Source: a virus (taxonomy: Duplodnaviria; Caudoviricetes). From it: a stretch of DNA of 64,000 nucleotides. Below are positions 25,543 through 46,227 of this stretch, piece by piece; positions within the stretch are counted from its first letter, which is position 1; each line of letters begins with the position of its first letter. The translations under genes were made by a program, and so were the position numbers. Location of the stretch: the IMG/VR virus record IMGVR_UViG_3300031088_000782, positions 128,001-192,000 of that record; one strand, given 5' to 3'. The notes beneath the pieces are model-generated. The model saw only the letters and a list, made by a program, of their open reading frames with translations. It was not told the DNA's origin and searched no databases.

Positions 25543-26094
25543 ATGAGTATTGATTTTATAAGTGGAAATGTGAATTTAGAAGAAAAATATTTTAAAAATT
25601 ATTCTACAAGCGAAGATACTTATTATGTAATTACAAAAATCCTTTCTTTGAATAATGATGTTAAACTACCTCATCCTGTTAGCAAAAATGAAGATAACTA
25701 TGCTTATACTTTGTCATATCATTACAATGACAAAAAATCTATTCAAGGATTAGTTCGACATGACCCTGATTTAGTTGTATTTGAGTATACCTCTTATGTA
25801 TCTGTAACAGATCCTAAACTATGGACTGATTTCACAGTAACAGGACATGATGTTCTTGTTTCTTTACCTTTCAGAAGTTTGGACGATATTTCACAATTTA
25901 TTATCCAAAATGTTCAACAAGAAAAAACTTTGGATAATCTTATTGGAAATTTTTATGATCATATCAATTCAGTAGAAGTTTTTGATGGATTGTATTCACG
26001 AACATTTTTACCTACTGATAATACACGTCAACTACTTAGAGAAAATGGAACAGTTAGTGAAGTTTCTCATTCTTTTGCTGAAAAAATAAAGTAA
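25543..26094 (+). CDS. Hypothetical protein within the tRNA array
   Basis: AAGGAGG RBS before ATG 25543. Confidence 0.7.
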   Translation: MSIDFISGNVNLEEKYFKNYSTSEDTYYVITKILSLNNDVKLPHPVSKNEDNYAYTLSYHYNDKKSIQGLVRHDPDLVVFEYTSYVSVTDPKLWTDFTVTGHDVLVSLPFRSLDDISQFIIQNVQQEKTLDNLIGNFYDHINSVEVFDGLYSRTFLPTDNTRQLLRENGTVSEVSHSFAEKIK

Positions 26095-33842: not shown

Positions 33843-34704
33843 ATGGATATTGATTTTACAAAATATGGTTATATTTACCGAATGACTAATTTAGTAAATG
33901 GTAAAACCTATATTGGTCAACATAAAATCAAATCAAATGAAAAATTCCTCGATTATATGGGCAGTGGAAGAATCATTCGCCAAGCTATTCATAAATACGG
34001 TAAAGAAAATTTTTCAAAAGAAATTCTTGAATATGCTATAAACAAAGAAGAGTTAGACATCTTAGAGAAGAGTTATATTCATAAAGAAATTTTGAATAGT
34101 AAATCAGAATACAATATTGAATATAGTAGCTCTTCTTTACAATTTAAATTCAAAGAATTGTTAATAAACGATAATGATTTATTAAACTGGTATTTTGATA
34201 AAAATATGAGCTATAAAGACATTGCTTTAAAACTTGGTTGTTCTGAACCTTCTATTTATAGATATATGAACAAATTTCGTAAATCTGATGAAAGATTTAA
34301 AAATATTAAGCACGGAGATAACAGAGGAAAAAAGTGGATTTACTCCAGAAGAAAGAGAAAAAGCCATTAAGTCTGCTAAGGTAAAAGTTAAGTGCGAAAA
34401 TTGCGGACATCCAATTAGTAAATTTAATTATCCAAAGCATTATAATGTATGTATTGACGAAAACTTTACTTATGTTGATGGAATTAAGAAAAAGAAGTGT
34501 CCTGTAGATAACTGTGATACCTTAATCTACACTAAAAATAAAACTTGTAAAGAACATAGAACAGCAGGATCAAATTTGAATAATATAAAAACTCCTGAAA
34601 GTTTACGAAAAGCTGGACTTTCTTCAACGCATAAGAAATGGCACGTTAATAGAGATATAATTAATCCTAACTGTCCTTTATGCAATCCTGTTGACAAACC
34701 TTAA
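33843..34704 (+). pseudogene. Second GIY-YIG endonuclease, split by a +1 frameshift at the A6 run 34328-34333
   Basis: Paralog of 26348 across both ORFs (GDNRGK.. then KCENCG..KWHVNR); removing one A restores the frame. Confidence 0.8.
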
Positions 34705-34963
34705 TCAACTTTTTCAACAATCTTTCAACAACCTTTCAGAAACACAGAAATAGCCCGTATAGGCGATAGCTTGCTTAATTCGCACAGACTTACACAAATA
34801 TGTAAAACCCGCTTAAACAACCGTTTTTCAATGTTTCAACAAACGATTCATTAATCTATTTCAATACCCTCGAACGATGACAAAATTAATGAATATTGTT
34901 GAATAACATTGGTAAACTGCTATAGCAAGAAACTTTATCCATTAAGTATAGGAGAGGTAACAA

Positions 34964-35173
34964 ATGAGCGAAAATGCTGAAAATCTTAAAAAAGATATGG
35001 AAGACAATAAAGAGTTATTGAATTTAAGCGATAAAGAGAAAAAAGTATATGATGCTGCTTTCATTGCTATAGCGAATAAGCCAGTTCATAATTCTCCACC
35101 AATCATTCAGATAGCGCTTATGATTATTATTGCTATTGCTTTAATTATTGGAGTTGTTCAAATTGCAGGTTGA
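34964..35173 (+). CDS. Small membrane protein
   Basis: GGAGAGG RBS; C-terminal TM helix. Confidence 0.7.
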   Translation: MSENAENLKKDMEDNKELLNLSDKEKKVYDAAFIAIANKPVHNSPPIIQIALMIIIAIALIIGVVQIAG

Positions 35174-35384
35174 TGAAATTAATGAAGATGATGATTTTTT
35201 AATTTCAAAAGGTTTTATTATAACTATGTTAGCATTTATGTTTATTTTTATTGCTGTTATGATCCTTGCAGGAGTTATGGCAGTTAATAAGATATCTCCT
35301 AATAATCTTCTTGCTCATTTAATGCTTGTTGAAGATTTAGATTCTTGTAAACCAATTCTTAATGGTTTTTTGTTAAAATGCTAA
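35148..35384 (+). CDS. Small membrane protein (start uncertain)
   Basis: Hydrophobic GFIITMLAFMFIFIAVMILAGVMAV. Confidence 0.5.
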   Translation: MELFKLQVDEINEDDDFLISKGFIITMLAFMFIFIAVMILAGVMAVNKISPNNLLAHLMLVEDLDSCKPILNGFLLKC

Positions 35385-35617
35385 AAATATTTTGAAATGG
35401 ATTTGACTTTTTGAAATTAATTGTGTTAAGATAATATTGTCAAAGAGAGATTGAGGACTTGTTAGAGAAACAACGAGATAAAGATTTGACAAATAGTTTC
35501 AAAATGTGTTAGAATATTTTTTGTAAGACAGAAAAATTTTGATAAGTTAATAATGAAGCAAAGTTGATATTGTTAAAGTTATTTGATACAATATTAAAGT
35601 GATAAAAATTCACGTAT

Positions 35618-35691
35618 CGCGGGGTGGAGTAGTTAGGTAACTCGTATGGCTCATAACCATAAGATCGTAGGTTCAAATCCTACCCCCGCCA
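35618..35691 (+). tRNA. tRNA-fMet(CAT)
   Basis: CGCGGGG start, C1:C72 mismatch; loop CTCATAA. Confidence 0.9.
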
Positions 35692-35721
35692 CTAAATCTG
35701 ATTGAAAAATTGGATTTTATT

Positions 35722-35805
35722 GCCCTTGTGGTGGAATTGGTTTACACAGCGCACTTAAAATGCGTAACTCATAGCAGTTTGCGGGTTCGAGTCCCGCCAG
35801 GGGCA
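35722..35805 (+). tRNA. tRNA-Leu(TAA)
   Basis: Loop CTTAAAA. Confidence 0.92.
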
Positions 35806-35806
35806 C

Positions 35807-36382
35807 ATGATTAATTGGAATATGAGAACATATACAAAAGAAGATTTTATAAAAGCATGGAATTCTTCTGAATCAATAAGACAAGTATTGATTAAATTAG
35901 GGTTAAAGCCTATTGGTGGAAATTACCATACTGTAAAGAAAATGGCAAAAGAGCTAAATTTAAAAAATGATCATATGCTGGGGCAAGCTATAAATCGCGG
36001 AAAATCAATAGTTAATAGTAAATCTATTTATGATTACTTGACAAAAGACAGCCATATTTCTTCTTATCATTTAAAGAACAAACTCTTTAAAGCAGAAATT
36101 TTTAAAAAAGAATGTTCTATATGCTATAATAGTATGTGGATGGGCAAACCAATTCCACTTGAATTAGATCATAAGAACGGGGATCATTATGATAATCGTA
36201 TAGAAAATTTAAGAATTTTATGCGCTAATTGTCATGCTCAGACAAAAAATTATAGAGGTAAAAATAAAAAGATTCACAGGAATTTTAAAAACAATGCCAA
36301 CAAATGTTTAGTTTGCTCAAAAGAAATTTCAAGAAACGCCAAAAAATGCAGGAAATGCGAATCAAATTCAAGAAAAACATGA
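35807..36382 (+). CDS. HNH homing endonuclease
   Basis: PLELDHKNGDHYDNRIENLRILCANCH; ATG lies 2 nt after the tRNA-Leu discriminator. Confidence 0.9.
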   Translation: MINWNMRTYTKEDFIKAWNSSESIRQVLIKLGLKPIGGNYHTVKKMAKELNLKNDHMLGQAINRGKSIVNSKSIYDYLTKDSHISSYHLKNKLFKAEIFKKECSICYNSMWMGKPIPLELDHKNGDHYDNRIENLRILCANCHAQTKNYRGKNKKIHRNFKNNANKCLVCSKEISRNAKKCRKCESNSRKT

Positions 36383-36504
36383 ATAATTAATTTTAATCAA
36401 TGGGATATGGTATTTTTGCTGTATCCTATTTTTTTACTTCATTTAGAAAAATATTAAATATTATGACTTGATTGACATTAACTATGGCAAAAGGATTTTT
36501 AACA

Positions 36505-37473
36505 ATGAGCAAATTTCATATTTCAAAAGATGGGATAGCAAGACAGTGCCGTGCGCAAACACCTGATGCTTGCCGCGCCACAAAATCAGACCAAAAAGAA
36601 CACTATGAAACAAGAGAAGAAGCAGAAAAAGCTTACGAGAAAAAGAATACAACAGTAAAAAGTTTAAGTAAGAAAAATAAGAATGATTTTGTTACTAAAA
36701 AAGTTTCTTTAAAAGAACAACTTGCGAAAAGTGAAGAAAAAGTTAGGGAAAGTTTTTCTGAACATCAGCATCACAATGATCAACAATTAGATAAAATAGC
36801 TAAACGAAATCAAACAACAACAGTAGATCTTATCAATAATTATAATGATTCTACTGATAATTATAATAAGTTTCTCAATAATAGATACGAAAATTATAAA
36901 AATGATAGTAAAATTCCATTAGAAAAATTGTCAAATGAAGTAAAAGCCGGAGAAGACTTTATTTATCATAGCAGGAAAATAGCCAGCACATCTGACGAAA
37001 GAATGGAATCATATCTAAAAAATATTAGATTATACAAAAATAGTTTGAATTTGGAAAACAAGGCTTTGAGAAAAGAAATTGAAAAAGTTGAGAAATCTGG
37101 AAGAATTCGTAGTGCTTTTGATAATGATTTCAAAACTGAAAAAGAGAATAAATTAAATGAGCTTAATAATAGATTAAAAGATAACAGAAGTTCTATTGTA
37201 AAAGCAATAAATTCAGAAGAGTCAGTTGCTGCAGGATTACAAGCAAAAAGGATTAAAATTTTAGAATCCAAAGGTTATAAGCCTGTTACTGCATATAGTG
37301 GAATGAATATGTCTTTTCATCCACAAGGTCCAGAGTTTAGATATACTTGCCCAAATTGTGGAATTGAACATACTAATAGATTGAGAAGACTTCAGTATGT
37401 TCAAGAAGTTGGATATACAGATGCTTGTAGATCATGCCGTAAAAGAATGATTTTACCTGTTACACCTGAATAA
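36505..37473 (+). CDS. Hypothetical coiled-coil protein with N-terminal H-C-C-H leader and C-terminal Zn ribbon
   Basis: MSKFHISKDGIARQCRAQTPDAC...HYETREEA; CPNC...CRSC. Confidence 0.8.
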   Translation: MSKFHISKDGIARQCRAQTPDACRATKSDQKEHYETREEAEKAYEKKNTTVKSLSKKNKNDFVTKKVSLKEQLAKSEEKVRESFSEHQHHNDQQLDKIAKRNQTTTVDLINNYNDSTDNYNKFLNNRYENYKNDSKIPLEKLSNEVKAGEDFIYHSRKIASTSDERMESYLKNIRLYKNSLNLENKALRKEIEKVEKSGRIRSAFDNDFKTEKENKLNELNNRLKDNRSSIVKAINSEESVAAGLQAKRIKILESKGYKPVTAYSGMNMSFHPQGPEFRYTCPNCGIEHTNRLRRLQYVQEVGYTDACRSCRKRMILPVTPE

Positions 37474-37536
37474 TCTAATCTACTTTCACTATGGTGTTTA
37501 GCCCCATTTTACAATAATAATGATACTGACTCTCTA

Positions 37537-38097
37537 ATGGACAAGTATCAAAAAGAACATGGTAAATTAAAAGATCACGAAGATTTTGAAAAATATCGTG
37601 AATGGCGAGATGAATATGTTTATCAAGAATTAAAAAAGATCGAAGCATCTAAAGACAAAAATTATAATAATATAAGAAAAATGACAGCAGAGGGAGTAGA
37701 AGCACTTGATGACAAGCTAAGTGATTTAACATCTCGTGCTGTTGAATTTGAACAATCAGAATATGTTAATGAAGATGGCGAAAAAATTACTTATGATGTA
37801 ATTACTTTTAATGATTTGAGCGATATCAATTACAACATTTACAAAAAGAATGGACAATATTTTATTAAATCAGACTATCTTATGAAAAATAAAGATGGAT
37901 ATAAACCTATCACTAATGAGTTAGACACAGATAGACTATTCTCTAACAGCGAAGAATTTATGAACAATACTCATGGAGATGACTTCACTTACAACAAAAA
38001 TGAAGCTAATTCAAATAAATTATATATTAAAGATTTTGCAAACAAACATTTCTCTGAAGCTTCTGAAATATTAAAGAAAAGGTATAATATTGAGTAA
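37537..38097 (+). CDS. Hypothetical protein, in frame with the upstream ORF across a single TAA
   Basis: 186 aa; no clear RBS; frame open back to TAA 37471-37473. Confidence 0.7.
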   Translation: MDKYQKEHGKLKDHEDFEKYREWRDEYVYQELKKIEASKDKNYNNIRKMTAEGVEALDDKLSDLTSRAVEFEQSEYVNEDGEKITYDVITFNDLSDINYNIYKKNGQYFIKSDYLMKNKDGYKPITNELDTDRLFSNSEEFMNNTHGDDFTYNKNEANSNKLYIKDFANKHFSEASEILKKRYNIE

Positions 38098-38572
38098 ATA
38101 ACATTAATTAAAAAGAAAGAGAAGTCTTATGCATAAAAACAATATTCCTACAGTAAAAGAAGTTTTAAAAGATTTTAATAATGTTGTGGAACGATGGAAG
38201 AATCATGAAATGAATGATTCTGACATGGTTGATTTTATATTCGTCTAGAGGGTCGAAAATTGAACAAAGTTAATTCTGTTTGTTATTGTAATGAACCAGA
38301 TGTGTGTTGCGTTGCTCATAATAATCATAATTCAGAGATTCATAAAGGATGTATTTTAAGGTAATTTTGTTATTATTAATAAAATAAGTTATGGATATAT
38401 ATGTTAGAATTAAAATATTGGAAAAGTTCGACTAGTTTCAAAATAAGAAAGATAAGGTGACACAATTTTAAAGAATATTAGTTGTGTCACTTTATCTCTT
38501 TATCCTTGATCTTTTTGGAATAATTCATTAATTATATCAGTTAATAATTTTACTCTCAAAAGGACGGATAAA

Positions 38573-39163
38573 ATGGAACATCATAATAATAATTTTCAAC
38601 ATAATCATATTAACCACGAAGATCATTCTCATCATAGTGGTGGTCATGAAGGAATGGCTCTTTCAGCAACCCTCCATTGTTTAACGGGTTGCGCAATTGG
38701 CGAAATCTTAGGAATGATTATTGGGACTTCGCTTGGTCTTCATAATTTATCAACTGTTATTATTTCAATAGGATTAGCTTTTGTTTTTGGTTATGCTTTA
38801 TCAATGAAACCTTTATTGATAAATGGAATTAAATTAAACCAAGCTTTAAAACTTGTTCTGGTGGCTGACACTTTATCAATTCTCTCTATGGAAATTGCAG
38901 AAAATTTAATAATGCTTGTTATTCCTGGTGCAATGTCTGCAGGTGTTTCTAATCCTATGTTTTGGGTGTCTATGAGTATCGCTTTTCTTGTCGGTTTTGC
39001 AGTTGCTTATCCTGTTAATAAAGTTTTGCTTAAGAAAAATAAAGGACATGCTATTACTCATGAAGCCACTGGACATCATGAGATGAATAATGCTCCACTT
39101 ATCTTTGCTTTAGTATCATTTATGTTAGGTGGTTTAATTACATCACTTTTAGGAAATTTTTAA
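38573..39163 (+). CDS. DUF4396-like His-rich membrane protein (metal-related)
   Basis: His-rich N-terminus; ATLHCLTGCAIGE; AYPVNKVLL. Confidence 0.85.
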   Translation: MEHHNNNFQHNHINHEDHSHHSGGHEGMALSATLHCLTGCAIGEILGMIIGTSLGLHNLSTVIISIGLAFVFGYALSMKPLLINGIKLNQALKLVLVADTLSILSMEIAENLIMLVIPGAMSAGVSNPMFWVSMSIAFLVGFAVAYPVNKVLLKKNKGHAITHEATGHHEMNNAPLIFALVSFMLGGLITSLLGNF

Positions 39164-39217
39164 ATATTATTTAGAAAAATATAATATATTAATATTATTT
39201 AAATTAGGAAAAAGAAA

Positions 39218-40138
39218 ATGACTAAATATCACATAAATCCTGAAACAGAAAGAGTAAATATCTGTCGTGCTGAAAAGAAGTGCCAGTTTGCAGACGATCA
39301 AGGAAATGAACCACCACACTTTAACACTAAACAAGAAGCGCGCGCCTATAACGAAAATAATCTTAAAAAAGAATTAGGAACTTTCTCAACTATTTCAAAA
39401 ACAAAAAATAGTAAAAAGAAAATTAACACTTTGACAGAAAACGAAAATATTGAATTAACAAATAAAATGGTTAATGAATTTAATAAAATGTATAAATCTT
39501 TATCTAATACAGAACAAAGAGCAATTGATTATTACACTTTTTGTGGATCATCTTCAATGAATAGACTATTACATGGAACCCCAAGAGAAGATGAAGAAGC
39601 TTCAGTAGAATCCACTATGAAACATATTAAAAATCTTGATAATGTTATAAATAGACACTACGAGGAACACAAAGGAGAAAAGAAAACTTTGTATCGTTAT
39701 CTTTCATTAGACAAGAATACTGATGTTAATGAATTTATAAAAGAAAATTTTCAAGAAGGTAAAGAATATTCTGATACCGGGTTTATGAGCACTACTGAAG
39801 ATATTTCTTTTATTGCTGGATATGCTAAAAAGCACAGTAGAAACAGAAAGTTTGTTATTTTAGAGATGGAAACAGATAAAGGAATAAGTTGCCAAAAACA
39901 AGAAGAGCAAACTGGAACTATCCAAAGCTTTGAAAAAGAAAGATTATTACCACGAAATATGAAATTTAAAGTTGATGAAATTTTTGAATCAAATGTTAAA
40001 ATTGATAAATCAAGAGAAAAACTTCATAAACAATTTGGGGGAAATGGTTATATGTTAAGCGAACACATTAATTATATTCCATCTAAAAAATTCAATTTTA
40101 TCAAACTAATAGAACAAGAGGACAATAAAAGTGACTAA
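39218..40138 (+). CDS. VIP2/Alt-like mono-ADP-ribosyltransferase with H-C-C-H leader
   Basis: R-S-EXE signature: LYRY, GFMSTT, FEKERLLPRN. Confidence 0.88.
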   Translation: MTKYHINPETERVNICRAEKKCQFADDQGNEPPHFNTKQEARAYNENNLKKELGTFSTISKTKNSKKKINTLTENENIELTNKMVNEFNKMYKSLSNTEQRAIDYYTFCGSSSMNRLLHGTPREDEEASVESTMKHIKNLDNVINRHYEEHKGEKKTLYRYLSLDKNTDVNEFIKENFQEGKEYSDTGFMSTTEDISFIAGYAKKHSRNRKFVILEMETDKGISCQKQEEQTGTIQSFEKERLLPRNMKFKVDEIFESNVKIDKSREKLHKQFGGNGYMLSEHINYIPSKKFNFIKLIEQEDNKSD

Positions 40139-41567
40139 ATATCATATAAGCGATTCAGGTAAAGTAGTCATTTGTCGTGCAACTAAAACTGTTTGCCCAA
40201 AAGAAAATTTTGACAGTATTGAAGATGCTGAAAATTTTAAAGAAACTCTATACAATAATACTATTCCAACTATGTCTAAACAGTCCAATAAGGGACTTAG
40301 GGAAGCTGAAAAGTATTATGGCGGTAAGTTCCTCACTTATCATAATATATCGCTTGAAAAAGGCGTAGAAAGCGTTTTAGATGATTTGAAAAAGATAGGG
40401 AACCCATTAATTGTTGGCGGGGCTGTAAGAGATTCGTTTGTAGGATCAGAAAATAAAGATATAGATATCGAAGTTCATAAAACAGATATAGACACACTTG
40501 TTAAAACATTGAAAAATGATGGATATATAGTTGATGAAGTAGGAAAACAATTCGGTGTTCTCAAAGTTTCTAAAAAAGGTGTTGTGAATGACTTAGACAT
40601 ATCTGTTCCTCGTAAAGAAAATCGTTTAGGAGCAGGTCATCGATCTTTTAATGTTGAAATGGATGAAAATATGACCGTTCAAGAATCTGCGGAAAGAAGA
40701 GATTTCACTTTCAATGCTGTCATGTATGATCATACAAGAAAAGTTATCATCGATCCTTCTGGTGGAAAGAATGACTTAAACAATAAAGTCATTCGTCATG
40801 TTTCTGAGAAATTTTCTGAAGATCCTTTAAGAGCTTTGAGAGGATTTCAGTTTGCAGGTAGATTTGATATGACTGTTGCTCCTGAAACAGCAACTTTATG
40901 TAAAAAATTGAGAAATGAATATGAACACTTGTCAATAGAAAGGGTGCAAGAAGAGTGGGGTAAATTCTTCACTAAAAGCGCACACCCAGCAAAAGGAATT
41001 CAAGCTTTAAAAGATATGGGATGGAATGACACTATACCCGGACTTCAAAAAGCATTAGACAATTCTTTTACAAAAGAATCTCTGAATAATCTCCCTACTG
41101 TCAGCAAGCAGAATAAAATAATTTTCGGATCTGCTGCTATCGCTCGAAATATGAATAATAACGAAAGAAAAAGTTTTATCTCTTCAACAGTCATTGGAAA
41201 TAAAGAGCAATTAAAAACTTATACTCTTAGCAGTTTTGACAATAATGAAGCCAGAACTTCTTATGAAAGAAAAAAAATTGCTAAAAAACTTGAGAAAACA
41301 GGCTTTACCTTTAGAGATTATCATAATTTCTCTCAAATGAATAATGACAGCGAAGGTGTTAAATTAAGTGAGAAAGCTGTTGCTGAAGGTTTAGCGGATG
41401 GCCCTGAAAAAGATTTGATTGCTGGTAAAGATATTTTTTCTTTGACTGATAAAAAACCTGGTCCTTGGATGGGTAAATTATTGAATGAAATAAGAGACAA
41501 ACAGTATCAGGGTGCTTTTTTAAATAAAAATGAAGCAATGATGTTTGCAAAAAGTAGAATACAGTGA
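40131..41567 (+). CDS. cca: Class II tRNA nucleotidyltransferase (CCA-adding) with extra N-terminal leader
   Basis: VGGAVRD, DIDIEV, RRDFTFNA, EDPLRALR, ERVQEEW, PGPWMG. Confidence 0.9.
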   Translation: MTKYHISDSGKVVICRATKTVCPKENFDSIEDAENFKETLYNNTIPTMSKQSNKGLREAEKYYGGKFLTYHNISLEKGVESVLDDLKKIGNPLIVGGAVRDSFVGSENKDIDIEVHKTDIDTLVKTLKNDGYIVDEVGKQFGVLKVSKKGVVNDLDISVPRKENRLGAGHRSFNVEMDENMTVQESAERRDFTFNAVMYDHTRKVIIDPSGGKNDLNNKVIRHVSEKFSEDPLRALRGFQFAGRFDMTVAPETATLCKKLRNEYEHLSIERVQEEWGKFFTKSAHPAKGIQALKDMGWNDTIPGLQKALDNSFTKESLNNLPTVSKQNKIIFGSAAIARNMNNNERKSFISSTVIGNKEQLKTYTLSSFDNNEARTSYERKKIAKKLEKTGFTFRDYHNFSQMNNDSEGVKLSEKAVAEGLADGPEKDLIAGKDIFSLTDKKPGPWMGKLLNEIRDKQYQGAFLNKNEAMMFAKSRIQ

Positions 41568-45483: not shown

Positions 45484-46227
45484 ATGGACACTTCGAAAAT
45501 TGAAACTAAACCTGCTTTTGCCTATACAGAGACAGAAAACAAAACCAATACTTTCACTGGTGGAAAGCCATTCATCAATGATGATTTCAAATTTCCTTAT
45601 GATAAGGACGGTAATCCACTTGTGTTCTTCTGCCAATTAGATTTAAGTGAGGTGGATCAAAGAATAATCAATCATCTTCATCTCCCTGAAAGGGGATTTA
45701 TACAGTTCTATCATGGTGGAGACGATCTTATGGGAATGGACTTTGATTCAGACAATTATATGGACAATAGTGTTTCGAAAATATTATATCTTGATAAAGC
45801 GTTTGATGAAGATTTTGATATGCCAAAAGAATACAAAGAAGACATGACCGATTATTCTCCTTTGGAAAATTCTATCAACAGAGACAATAGAAGGATTTTT
45901 TATAAAGGCGAATATATTGATATGCTTCCTTTTCCAAATTCTAACGATAATCCAGCTATCACAGAAGAAGACAGCTACGGAGAAGAGTATATGGATTATT
46001 ATGAAAAATCTAACGAAAAATATTATGAATTGTATTTAGGAGGATATCCACATTTTGTTCAATGGGACTTTAGGAACAAAGATCGCGAAATGAGCCTTCT
46101 TCTTGGCTCTGAAAGCGGTAACACTATAATGTGGGGAGATACAGGGGCTGGAGGATTTTGGGTTCCTCAGAATAATCTTGAGGAGCAAGATTATTCGCAA
46201 TCTTTCATCTTCTGGGATTGTGGATGA
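45484..46227 (+). CDS. DUF1963/YwqG-like protein
   Basis: GGKP, PLVFFCQLDL, GGYPHFVQ, MWGDTG, WDCG. Confidence 0.85.
   Translation: MDTSKIETKPAFAYTETENKTNTFTGGKPFINDDFKFPYDKDGNPLVFFCQLDLSEVDQRIINHLHLPERGFIQFYHGGDDLMGMDFDSDNYMDNSVSKILYLDKAFDEDFDMPKEYKEDMTDYSPLENSINRDNRRIFYKGEYIDMLPFPNSNDNPAITEEDSYGEEYMDYYEKSNEKYYELYLGGYPHFVQWDFRNKDREMSLLLGSESGNTIMWGDTGAGGFWVPQNNLEEQDYSQSFIFWDCG

Follow-up and report, generated by a model that had tools for sequence, protein, structure and literature searches.

The window analysed here is a 64,000-nucleotide stretch of DNA, bases 128001-192000 of the 309,534-bp record IMGVR_UViG_3300031088_000782. It encodes three proteins that begin with the same leader of about 50 residues and continue into unrelated sequences: a 322-aa protein, an ADP-ribosyltransferase (ART) and a CCA-adding tRNA nucleotidyltransferase. 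The leader is a modular domain situated strictly at the N-terminus, is present on further open reading frames (ORFs) of the record and on thousands of proteins elsewhere, and probably serves as a shared handle for docking or delivery. The reading favoured here, to which a probability of roughly one in three is given, is that the leader is a docking handle that couples co-regulated, fast-diversifying enzymes to the type IV secretion system (T4SS) of the element for transfer with its DNA. The features on which this reading is built are as follows, in window coordinates.

36442..36450, + strand: shared upstream motif TTTAGAAAA, about 55 nt 5' of the ATG of the gene at 36505
36505-37473, + strand: leader protein of 322 aa, taken from the ORF list, with no Pfam or NCBIfam family
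36505..36660, + strand: leader domain of the 36505 protein, residues 1-52 (profile E 5.5e-21)
39170..39178, + strand: shared upstream motif TTTAGAAAA, 48 nt 5' of the ATG of the ART gene
39218-40138, + strand: ART gene with leader, 306 aa (PF03496, E 2e-12, residues 87-266)
39218..39373, + strand: leader domain of the ART, residues 1-52, from the AlphaFold2 model
39374..39436, + strand: flexible basic linker of the ART between leader and cargo (predicted local distance difference test score, pLDDT, below 50 at residues 53-65)
39437..40138, + strand: R-S-ExE ADP-ribosyltransferase cargo domain (PF03496, motifs and Foldseek)
40131-41567, + strand: CCA-adding tRNA nucleotidyltransferase with leader, 478 aa, GTG start (PF01743, PF12627 and PF13735)
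40131..40280, + strand: degenerate leader of the CCA enzyme, H-C-C-N with a shorter loop (profile E 2.3e-18)

The leader domain

An earlier note on this DNA, made from the letters of the stretch, had claimed that the three proteins share an N-terminal motif. This is borne out, as all three + strand ORFs exist and the profile match is far above chance. The ATG at 36505 was taken as the start of the first gene because the leader family begins at residue 1-6. A regular-expression scan, followed by a profile built from the paralogues, showed that 11 ORFs of the 309,534-bp record open with the leader (E 1e-18 to 1e-26). Three of these lie in the window, and the C-terminal parts of 10 of the leader ORFs exhibit no mutual BLAST similarity at E 0.01. 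His5, Cys16, Ala18, Cys22 and Ala41 are invariant in the record's copies. His34 is also kept in every copy except that of the CCA enzyme, which carries Asn in its place within a shortened loop and has the lowest profile score of the 11. The H-C-C-H set that the note had assigned to all three proteins is therefore complete in the 36505 protein and the ART, and incomplete in the CCA enzyme (H-C-C-N). Its statement that ordinary CCA enzymes have no such leader is correct, since alignments with other phage CCA enzymes start only at residues 82-95.

When the leader profile was run against 1.84 billion representative proteins, it retrieved 5,086 clusters at E <= 1e-3, 708 of which were at E <= 1e-10. 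Among the 150 best relatives the match begins at residue 9 or earlier in 144; the His, the two Cys and the Ala do not vary, and 149 of them have the second His. The profile and census of fused domains, which the note had proposed as a check, thus returned thousands of members with varied cargo, and its view of a modular, autonomous N-terminal domain on unrelated cargo is upheld, with four near-invariant potential metal ligands. A homologue search limited to the leader region returned only nine close ART relatives, too few to serve as a census of the cargo, and a narrower leader alignment, used in a search for related loci, found only four loci in metagenome-assembled genomes (MAGs) of Actinomycetota (L032-L035). 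SPOR domains are present on some relatives of these MAG leader proteins, and the single Actinomycetota copies may represent the cellular ancestor of the leader.

The leader is covered by no Pfam, NCBIfam or PHROG model in residues 1-55 of 10 paralogues, the 150 best relatives and GC-rich members, and a profile search of the PDB with the leader gave a best E of 7.5. Neither of two tblastn queries, one AT-rich leader taken from the 340-aa ART-like paralogue and the GC-rich leader P0029, had a match among 50,697 GenBank phage records and 72,556 PLSDB plasmid records (cut-offs E <= 1 and E <= 0.1). Literature searches found no description of the leader domain or of the clade of elements that carries it. 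In the libraries and papers searched, neither the domain, with its particular size, fold and abundance of more than 5,000 clusters, nor the clade that carries it is described.

The AlphaFold2 model of the leader alone, built on a 150-sequence alignment, has a mean pLDDT of 86.5. In it, strands at residues 3-6 and 13-16 form a beta-hairpin, the long loop that follows contains one short strand (residues 34-35), and a helix spans residues 38-53. The full-length ART model retains this fold, followed by disorder at residues 53-65 and a well-modelled ART domain at residues 74-300. No significant match to the fold was found outside the leader family among solved or predicted structures: the best Foldseek hits had E-values of 0.66 against the PDB and 0.47 against the AFDB clusters, and a search of the ESM Atlas with the leader fold returned only the leader's own family. 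VIA-align against a wide set of PDB chains gave a best Z of 3.9, to Kunitz-like chains; kinship with these was rejected, as Z <= 3.9 reflects only the generic hairpin-plus-helix shape.

The His, Cys, Cys and His residues lie at fixed spacing in the manner of a structural zinc-binding mini-domain, and probably hold one metal ion, likely zinc. The net charge of the leader averages -0.5 (range -7 to +4), and this near-neutral, slightly acidic character favours protein binding over nucleic-acid binding. A flexible, mildly basic linker of 13-20 residues separates the leader from the cargo. Column conservation fades past the leader helix, where no conserved cleavage motif was found; a weak G-x-F-S..KK stretch in this region was considered as a cleavage site, for which its conservation is too low to judge.

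Cargo enzymes and a shared upstream motif

The cargo behind the leaders of this element comprises four ARTs, the CCA-adding enzyme and six domains of no recognised kind, and all four of the PF03496 domains in the 309 kb sit behind a leader. Cargo without a family also prevails among the 150 best relatives, for which Pfam identified ART (4), 2H phosphoesterase (2), Zeta toxin/AAA_33, Fic, HNH, GNAT, LPD29, SPOR and a few other domains. A YqaJ exonuclease is a further leader cargo in related elements. This repertoire is typical of conflict enzymes. On related giant contigs the leader genes are packed into dense arrays: one, on an 828-kb contig, has about 10 within 20 kb, and others have nine within 21 kb and five within 13 kb.

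The cargo of the 36505 protein has a helical, low-complexity middle and a C-terminal end with a zinc-ribbon-like CxxC...CxxC pattern, and its single match to PHROG is weak and confined to residues 279-292. The window ART scores 47.2 bits against PF03496 (cut-off 23.4) and conserves the YRY, STT and EKE motifs. Its top Foldseek matches are Vis (E 1.5e-9) and C2-I, VIP2 and CDTa (E 1e-8), with iota toxin within 1e-9 to 1e-7. Profile, motifs and fold together place it with the R-S-E ADP-ribosyltransferases of the C2/VIP2/iota-like kind. The PDB entry 8za7, a Listeria pair, turned up among these fold matches. A single ADP-ribosylglycohydrolase without a leader is encoded at record 205397-206185 (window 77397-78185, past the window end; PF03747, E 2e-61), and this enzyme and the tagged ARTs may form an effector-immunity or reversal pair like the one in 8za7.

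Two further ART loci of the record deviate from this pattern. In the tagged ART-like protein at record 281586-282608 (L007), F-S-G replaces the catalytic Y-R-G, and S-T-S and E-x-E are kept; judged by these motifs, the protein may be inactive or altered in specificity. The eleventh leader (record bases 22-976, 128 kb upstream of the window) is split by a frameshift from an ART ORF that exhibits 42% identity to the window ART. An identical frameshift is present in an independently assembled Logan contig (L038:851-1805), and it may mark a pseudogene, a programmed frameshift or a shared read error.

The cargo encoded at 40131 has the head, neck and tail domains of a class II CCA-adding enzyme and can be assigned to that class from its sequence. 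It matches PF01743 (E 2e-19, residues 94-222), PF12627, PF13735 and phrog_2244 (E 5e-59), as well as PRK13299 over residues 81-470 at E 1e-42, a score under the equivalog cut-off. Its gene lies inside an array of 66 tRNA genes (window 17134-47763), none of which encodes the 3' CCA, so that all of them depend on a CCA-adding enzyme. The simplest role of the enzyme is therefore the maturation of the element's own tRNAs, and the idea in the earlier note that it is a tRNA-repair payload delivered early finds no support in this setting. CCA enzymes that mature the carrier's own tRNAs have already been noted for jumbo phages in a paper that also covers the T4 ADP-ribosyltransferases (PMC7824862).

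The leader genes also share a sequence upstream of their starts. The motif T[TA]TAGAAA[AG] is found at positions -80 to -15 of 7 of 10 leader genes, compared with 4 of 307 other ORFs (Fisher p = 6e-10), and a TATAAT-like hexamer usually follows 4-7 nt 3' of it. Besides the two window sites given above, the motif is located at record positions 25759, 93205, 198854, 250265 and 281540, and also at 45661 and 42693. For two of the three leader genes that lack it there is an explanation: the stop of the ART gene overlaps the start of the CCA gene by 8 nt, so that the two form one operon in which the CCA gene is second, and another leader gene carries the variant ATAGAAAAA. The same core lies 5' of leader genes in four related contigs (L044, L031, L041 and L038). 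The few non-leader genes with the motif include a TadE-like gene and, both in L044 and in the present element, the VirB6/TrbL-like gene. The motif is probably part of a promoter or operator, probably a class-specific promoter that is perhaps read by one of the element's sigma factors. Because it precedes both leader and transfer genes, the tagged genes look like one regulon that overlaps the transfer genes.

The carrier element and the role of the leader

The record is filed by IMG/VR as a (pro)virus. Its source sample is a phyllosphere metagenome, and the element has actinobacterial-type neighbours (LGFP, G5 and PASTA). A six-frame search of the 309 kb with families for terminase, capsid and portal (Terminase_6N, TerL_ATPase, Phage_capsid and Phage_portal; PF05065, PF04860, PF03237 and PF03354) returned nothing at E <= 1. 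No virion family was identified among the ORFs of at least 280 aa, and neither a prohead protease nor ribosomal protein L2 was found in the record. In their place the element encodes a conjugation-type T4SS with a coupling protein, of the Gram-positive type, composed of the coupling protein (TrwB_AAD_bind/TraG-D_C), TcpC, a VirB6/TrbL-like protein, a VirB4-like AAA_10 ATPase (E 8e-52) and cell-wall hydrolases, as well as a Tad-like pilus with its Tad-type ATPase and platform genes. Phage-like replication and nucleotide genes are present along with the 66 tRNA genes, a transfer-messenger RNA (tmRNA), homing endonucleases, a UvsX-like gene and PhoH, with rIIB in relatives. A set of AAA+ proteins (a ClpB-type AAA_2 ATPase, a Lon_C protein and a MoxR AAA+/DUF2201 pair) is kept in relatives. 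Since no capsid, portal or terminase was found in the 309 kb, the virus label is doubtful, and the 'provirus' record more probably belongs to a giant element capable of conjugation. The virion packaging proposed by the earlier note, by analogy to the capsid-targeting sequence (CTS) of phage T4, is not supported: no machinery for it was found in these 309 kb, which hold a T4SS and a Tad-like pilus instead.

The sole match to a terminase large subunit, phrog_36964, was rejected because it matches nothing but the inteins of three unrelated proteins. A match of this kind is a trap for automatic virus calling. The three proteins are, in record coordinates:

61461-64274: T2SSE ATPase
104925-107225: DnaB
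239796-243005: 1069-aa protein

The coupling protein has 159 close relatives with 40-71% identity, and these are encoded on contigs of 300, 437, 494, 573, 671, 674, 683, 698, 728 and 828 kb. The clade of giant contigs spans 0.3-0.83 Mb and 33-64% GC. Its coupling protein and the leader co-occur on every related contig inspected, namely the element's own contig, the 828-kb JGI contig, L041, L044 and L045. Four elements of 35 to 57% GC have the gene order rIIB-thymidylate synthase-VKOR-leader gene-RNase T-glutaredoxin-DnaG-x-coupling protein-TcpC...TadE-PIN/PhoH-VirB6-like in common. The leader gene at this syntenic position encodes a 196-aa protein in the present record and, in L045, a 358-aa protein that has the leader and no YqaJ match. 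The coupling protein of the present element (record 34346-36781) has a variable C-terminal tail that ends in L-P-D-L, near-invariant across 57 relatives, and this tail is a candidate docking site for the relaxosome or for substrates.

The leader would, on the favoured reading, act as an autonomous protein-protein docking handle on a co-regulated set of enzymes, joined by the flexible basic linker to interchangeable cargo. It would couple these enzymes to the Gram-positive-type T4SS machinery that transfers the element's DNA, and the tagged enzymes would then reach the newly entered cell alongside that DNA. Sorting for secretion was also named in the earlier note, and a secretion or delivery tag of this broader kind corresponds to the reading favoured here. 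The strict N-terminal site, the varying toxin-like cargo, the arrays and the motif shared with transfer genes form together the signature of delivered polymorphic effectors, and on this signature the coupling to transfer machinery is ranked first and a hub role close behind. The data establish the domain, its modularity and strictly N-terminal position, its spread, the upstream motif and the T4SS context; that the leader binds metal and docks, to which partner, and that the tagged proteins are transferred is inferred. A complex predicted for the leader and the coupling protein (residues 100-811), from separate alignments, scored 0.00, which is evidence neither for nor against binding.

Several observations weigh against coupling to the T4SS. 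Known T4SS signals are C-terminal or internal and their substrates must unfold. The position of the leader, at residue 1-9 in 144 of the 150 best relatives, does not agree with such a signal, and a metal-stabilised fold would be an odd one. Some family members have two or three tandem copies of the leader or a C-terminal copy. The leader is also present on enzymes with plain in-cell jobs: the CCA enzyme, which is surrounded by CCA-less tRNA genes and so has an ordinary maturation job, and the YqaJ exonuclease, which occupies the syntenic leader gene position within the replication module of L041 and L044. Each of the four Actinomycetota MAGs has one divergent copy in an ordinary chromosomal context, on a protein of 182-185 aa with C-terminal transmembrane helices and no T4SS nearby (for example, L035:5986-6534). 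The link from the leader to a partner is itself inferred, and the 309 kb scanned are part of a 681,645-bp ENA contig of which about 372 kb lie outside the scan.

Much of this would suit an intracellular hub or adaptor, in which the enzymes are never exported and use the leader to bind a single common partner in the cytoplasm of the cell that carries the element; the ribosome, RNA polymerase, the division apparatus, a scaffold or unfoldase of the element, or the leader itself are candidate partners. A folded domain rather than a peptide signal, with near-neutral charge and with tandem and C-terminal copies, would suit such docking. Housekeeping-type cargo fits it as well (the CCA enzyme serving CCA-less tRNA genes, the syntenic YqaJ exonuclease), as do the cellular single-copy relatives, which form the cytoplasmic N-terminus of small Actinomycetota proteins of the membrane or SPOR type. 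However, a plain docking domain does not need near-absolute N-terminal placement, arrays of fast-diversifying toxin-like cargo suit delivered effectors better, and no hub protein with the leader was found in the element, the lone extra profile match having an E of 0.5. An intracellular hub is given almost as much weight as coupling to the transfer machinery. The more specific form of the delivery proposal, that the leader is a new N-terminal translocation handle for the Gram-positive-type secretion or transfer machinery of an undescribed syntenic clade of 0.3-0.83 Mb, in which conjugation genes occur beside tRNA arrays and phage-like genes for replication, is put forward more tentatively than either.

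Loading of the enzymes into a phage head for injection, in the manner of the T4 CTS, is unlikely. The (pro)virus label, the Viruses/Uroviricota labels of ESM Atlas clusters with the same N-terminal fold and the phage-like genes (tRNA array, homing endonucleases, UvsX-like, rIIB in relatives and PhoH) would agree with it, and the roughly 372 kb of the parent contig outside the scan could hold virion genes. Against these stand the lack of any capsid, portal, terminase or other virion family in the searches described above, a 'terminase' match that reduces to inteins, the absence of a visible prohead protease and of a conserved cleavage motif past the leader, and the absence of the leader from the GenBank phage records. 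A nucleic-acid-binding zinc knuckle that tethers RNA- or DNA-acting enzymes to tRNA, single-stranded DNA or the transferred strand is less likely again. Several cargo types do act on nucleic acids (the CCA enzyme, the exonuclease, HNH, 2H and possibly the ARTs), tandem zinc-knuckle-like repeats occur, and there is a weak shape likeness to the N-terminal DNA-binding domain of the Tn916 integrase, with a template modelling (TM) score of about 0.5; but the leader is slightly acidic on average with conserved Glu and Asp, has no significant fold match to nucleic-acid-binding zinc fingers, and mainly accompanies cargo that is without a family or protein-modifying. The least probable of these explanations is a regulatory or stability module, in which the leader is a metal or redox switch, a degron or a chaperone tag that times the activity or turnover of dangerous enzymes and is recognised, for instance, by the ClpB-like or Lon-like proteins of the element. 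The conserved AAA+ set, the exact N-terminal position, which suits a degron, and the need to control toxin-like cargo when one ADP-ribosylglycohydrolase was found for four ARTs would all be in line with it, yet a conserved 50-residue fold exceeds what a degron needs.

With a single short profile, thousands of uncharacterised proteins from giant uncultured elements are brought together in one functional class. The placement of the 'provirus' record in a widespread, syntenic clade of such elements changes how 'virus-labelled' jumbo contigs with tRNA arrays should be read. If the leader is a delivery or docking signal, the ARTs, Fic proteins, kinases, nucleases and unknown folds that these elements deploy could be listed from sequence, and the leader would be a defined bait in a search for its partner. 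If it is a translocation handle, its profile alone would list the whole delivered effector repertoire of the clade, thousands of proteins that are mostly of unknown fold.

Comparison with known systems

The CTS of phage T4 is a peptide of about 10-19 residues on Alt and the internal proteins IPI-III that is removed by the prohead protease inside the capsid. Like the leader, it is a constant N-terminal element on unrelated proteins that include an R-S-ExE ART, and it serves enzymes that are sent with DNA. Unlike the CTS, the leader is a folded H-C-C-H domain of about 50 residues without a conserved cleavage motif, and in the 309 kb it is accompanied by a T4SS and not by protease or capsid genes that could be found; the analogy to the T4 CTS that the earlier note had drawn is not supported, as the leader is not a short clipped peptide. 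XVIPCD, the VirD4-interacting conserved domain of Xanthomonas T4SS effectors, is about 120 residues in length, C-terminal and Gram-negative. It is, like the leader, a folded conserved domain rather than a short peptide on diverse proteins, and recognition by the coupling protein is for the leader a proposal. The two differ in that the leader has about 50 residues, is N-terminal and occurs in a Gram-positive-type T4SS context.

Toxins with a constant N-terminal module further include the MuF-domain toxins of temperate phages. A constant N-terminal handle with variable enzymes is in itself an already known principle, as illustrated by the T4 CTS and by published systems (PMC3482391, PMC5512222). 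In the polymorphic toxins of the LXG/WXG type VII and PAAR/MIX type VI systems (PMC3482391), a constant N-terminal module is likewise combined with swappable C-terminal enzymes, ART, Fic and nuclease domains recur, and the genes form arrays with quick turnover of the cargo. Their trafficking domains, however, resemble the leader neither in sequence nor in fold, and in the present elements no immunity genes were recognised next to the tagged genes, and some cargo (the CCA enzyme and YqaJ) does not resemble toxins. The polyvalent proteins (Iyer et al. 2017, PMC5512222) have ART, Zeta toxin, 2H and HNH domains in common with the leader cargo, along with one LPD29 match, and their proposed purpose is the delivery of enzymes with the invading DNA against host defence. 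They combine many domains in one giant polypeptide, whereas the leader proteins are separate small proteins with the same handle.

The carrier is comparable in kind to the Inocles of oral Streptococcus (PMC12340149), which are roughly 0.3-0.4 Mb or larger with about 32-34% GC, encode VirB4, VirD4 and tRNAs, have no reported capsid genes and are known only from metagenomes; the likeness drawn here is one of carrier type. Unlike the Inocles, the present element is from the phyllosphere with actinobacterial-type neighbours, and its clade spans 33-64% GC. The element also encodes an RHS-repeat protein of 2,123 aa at record 226568-232939 (PF05593, E 2e-76; DUF6531), which constitutes a second, classical polymorphic-toxin locus, and the TTTAGAAAA motif is located 5' of the small gene that follows the RHS protein.

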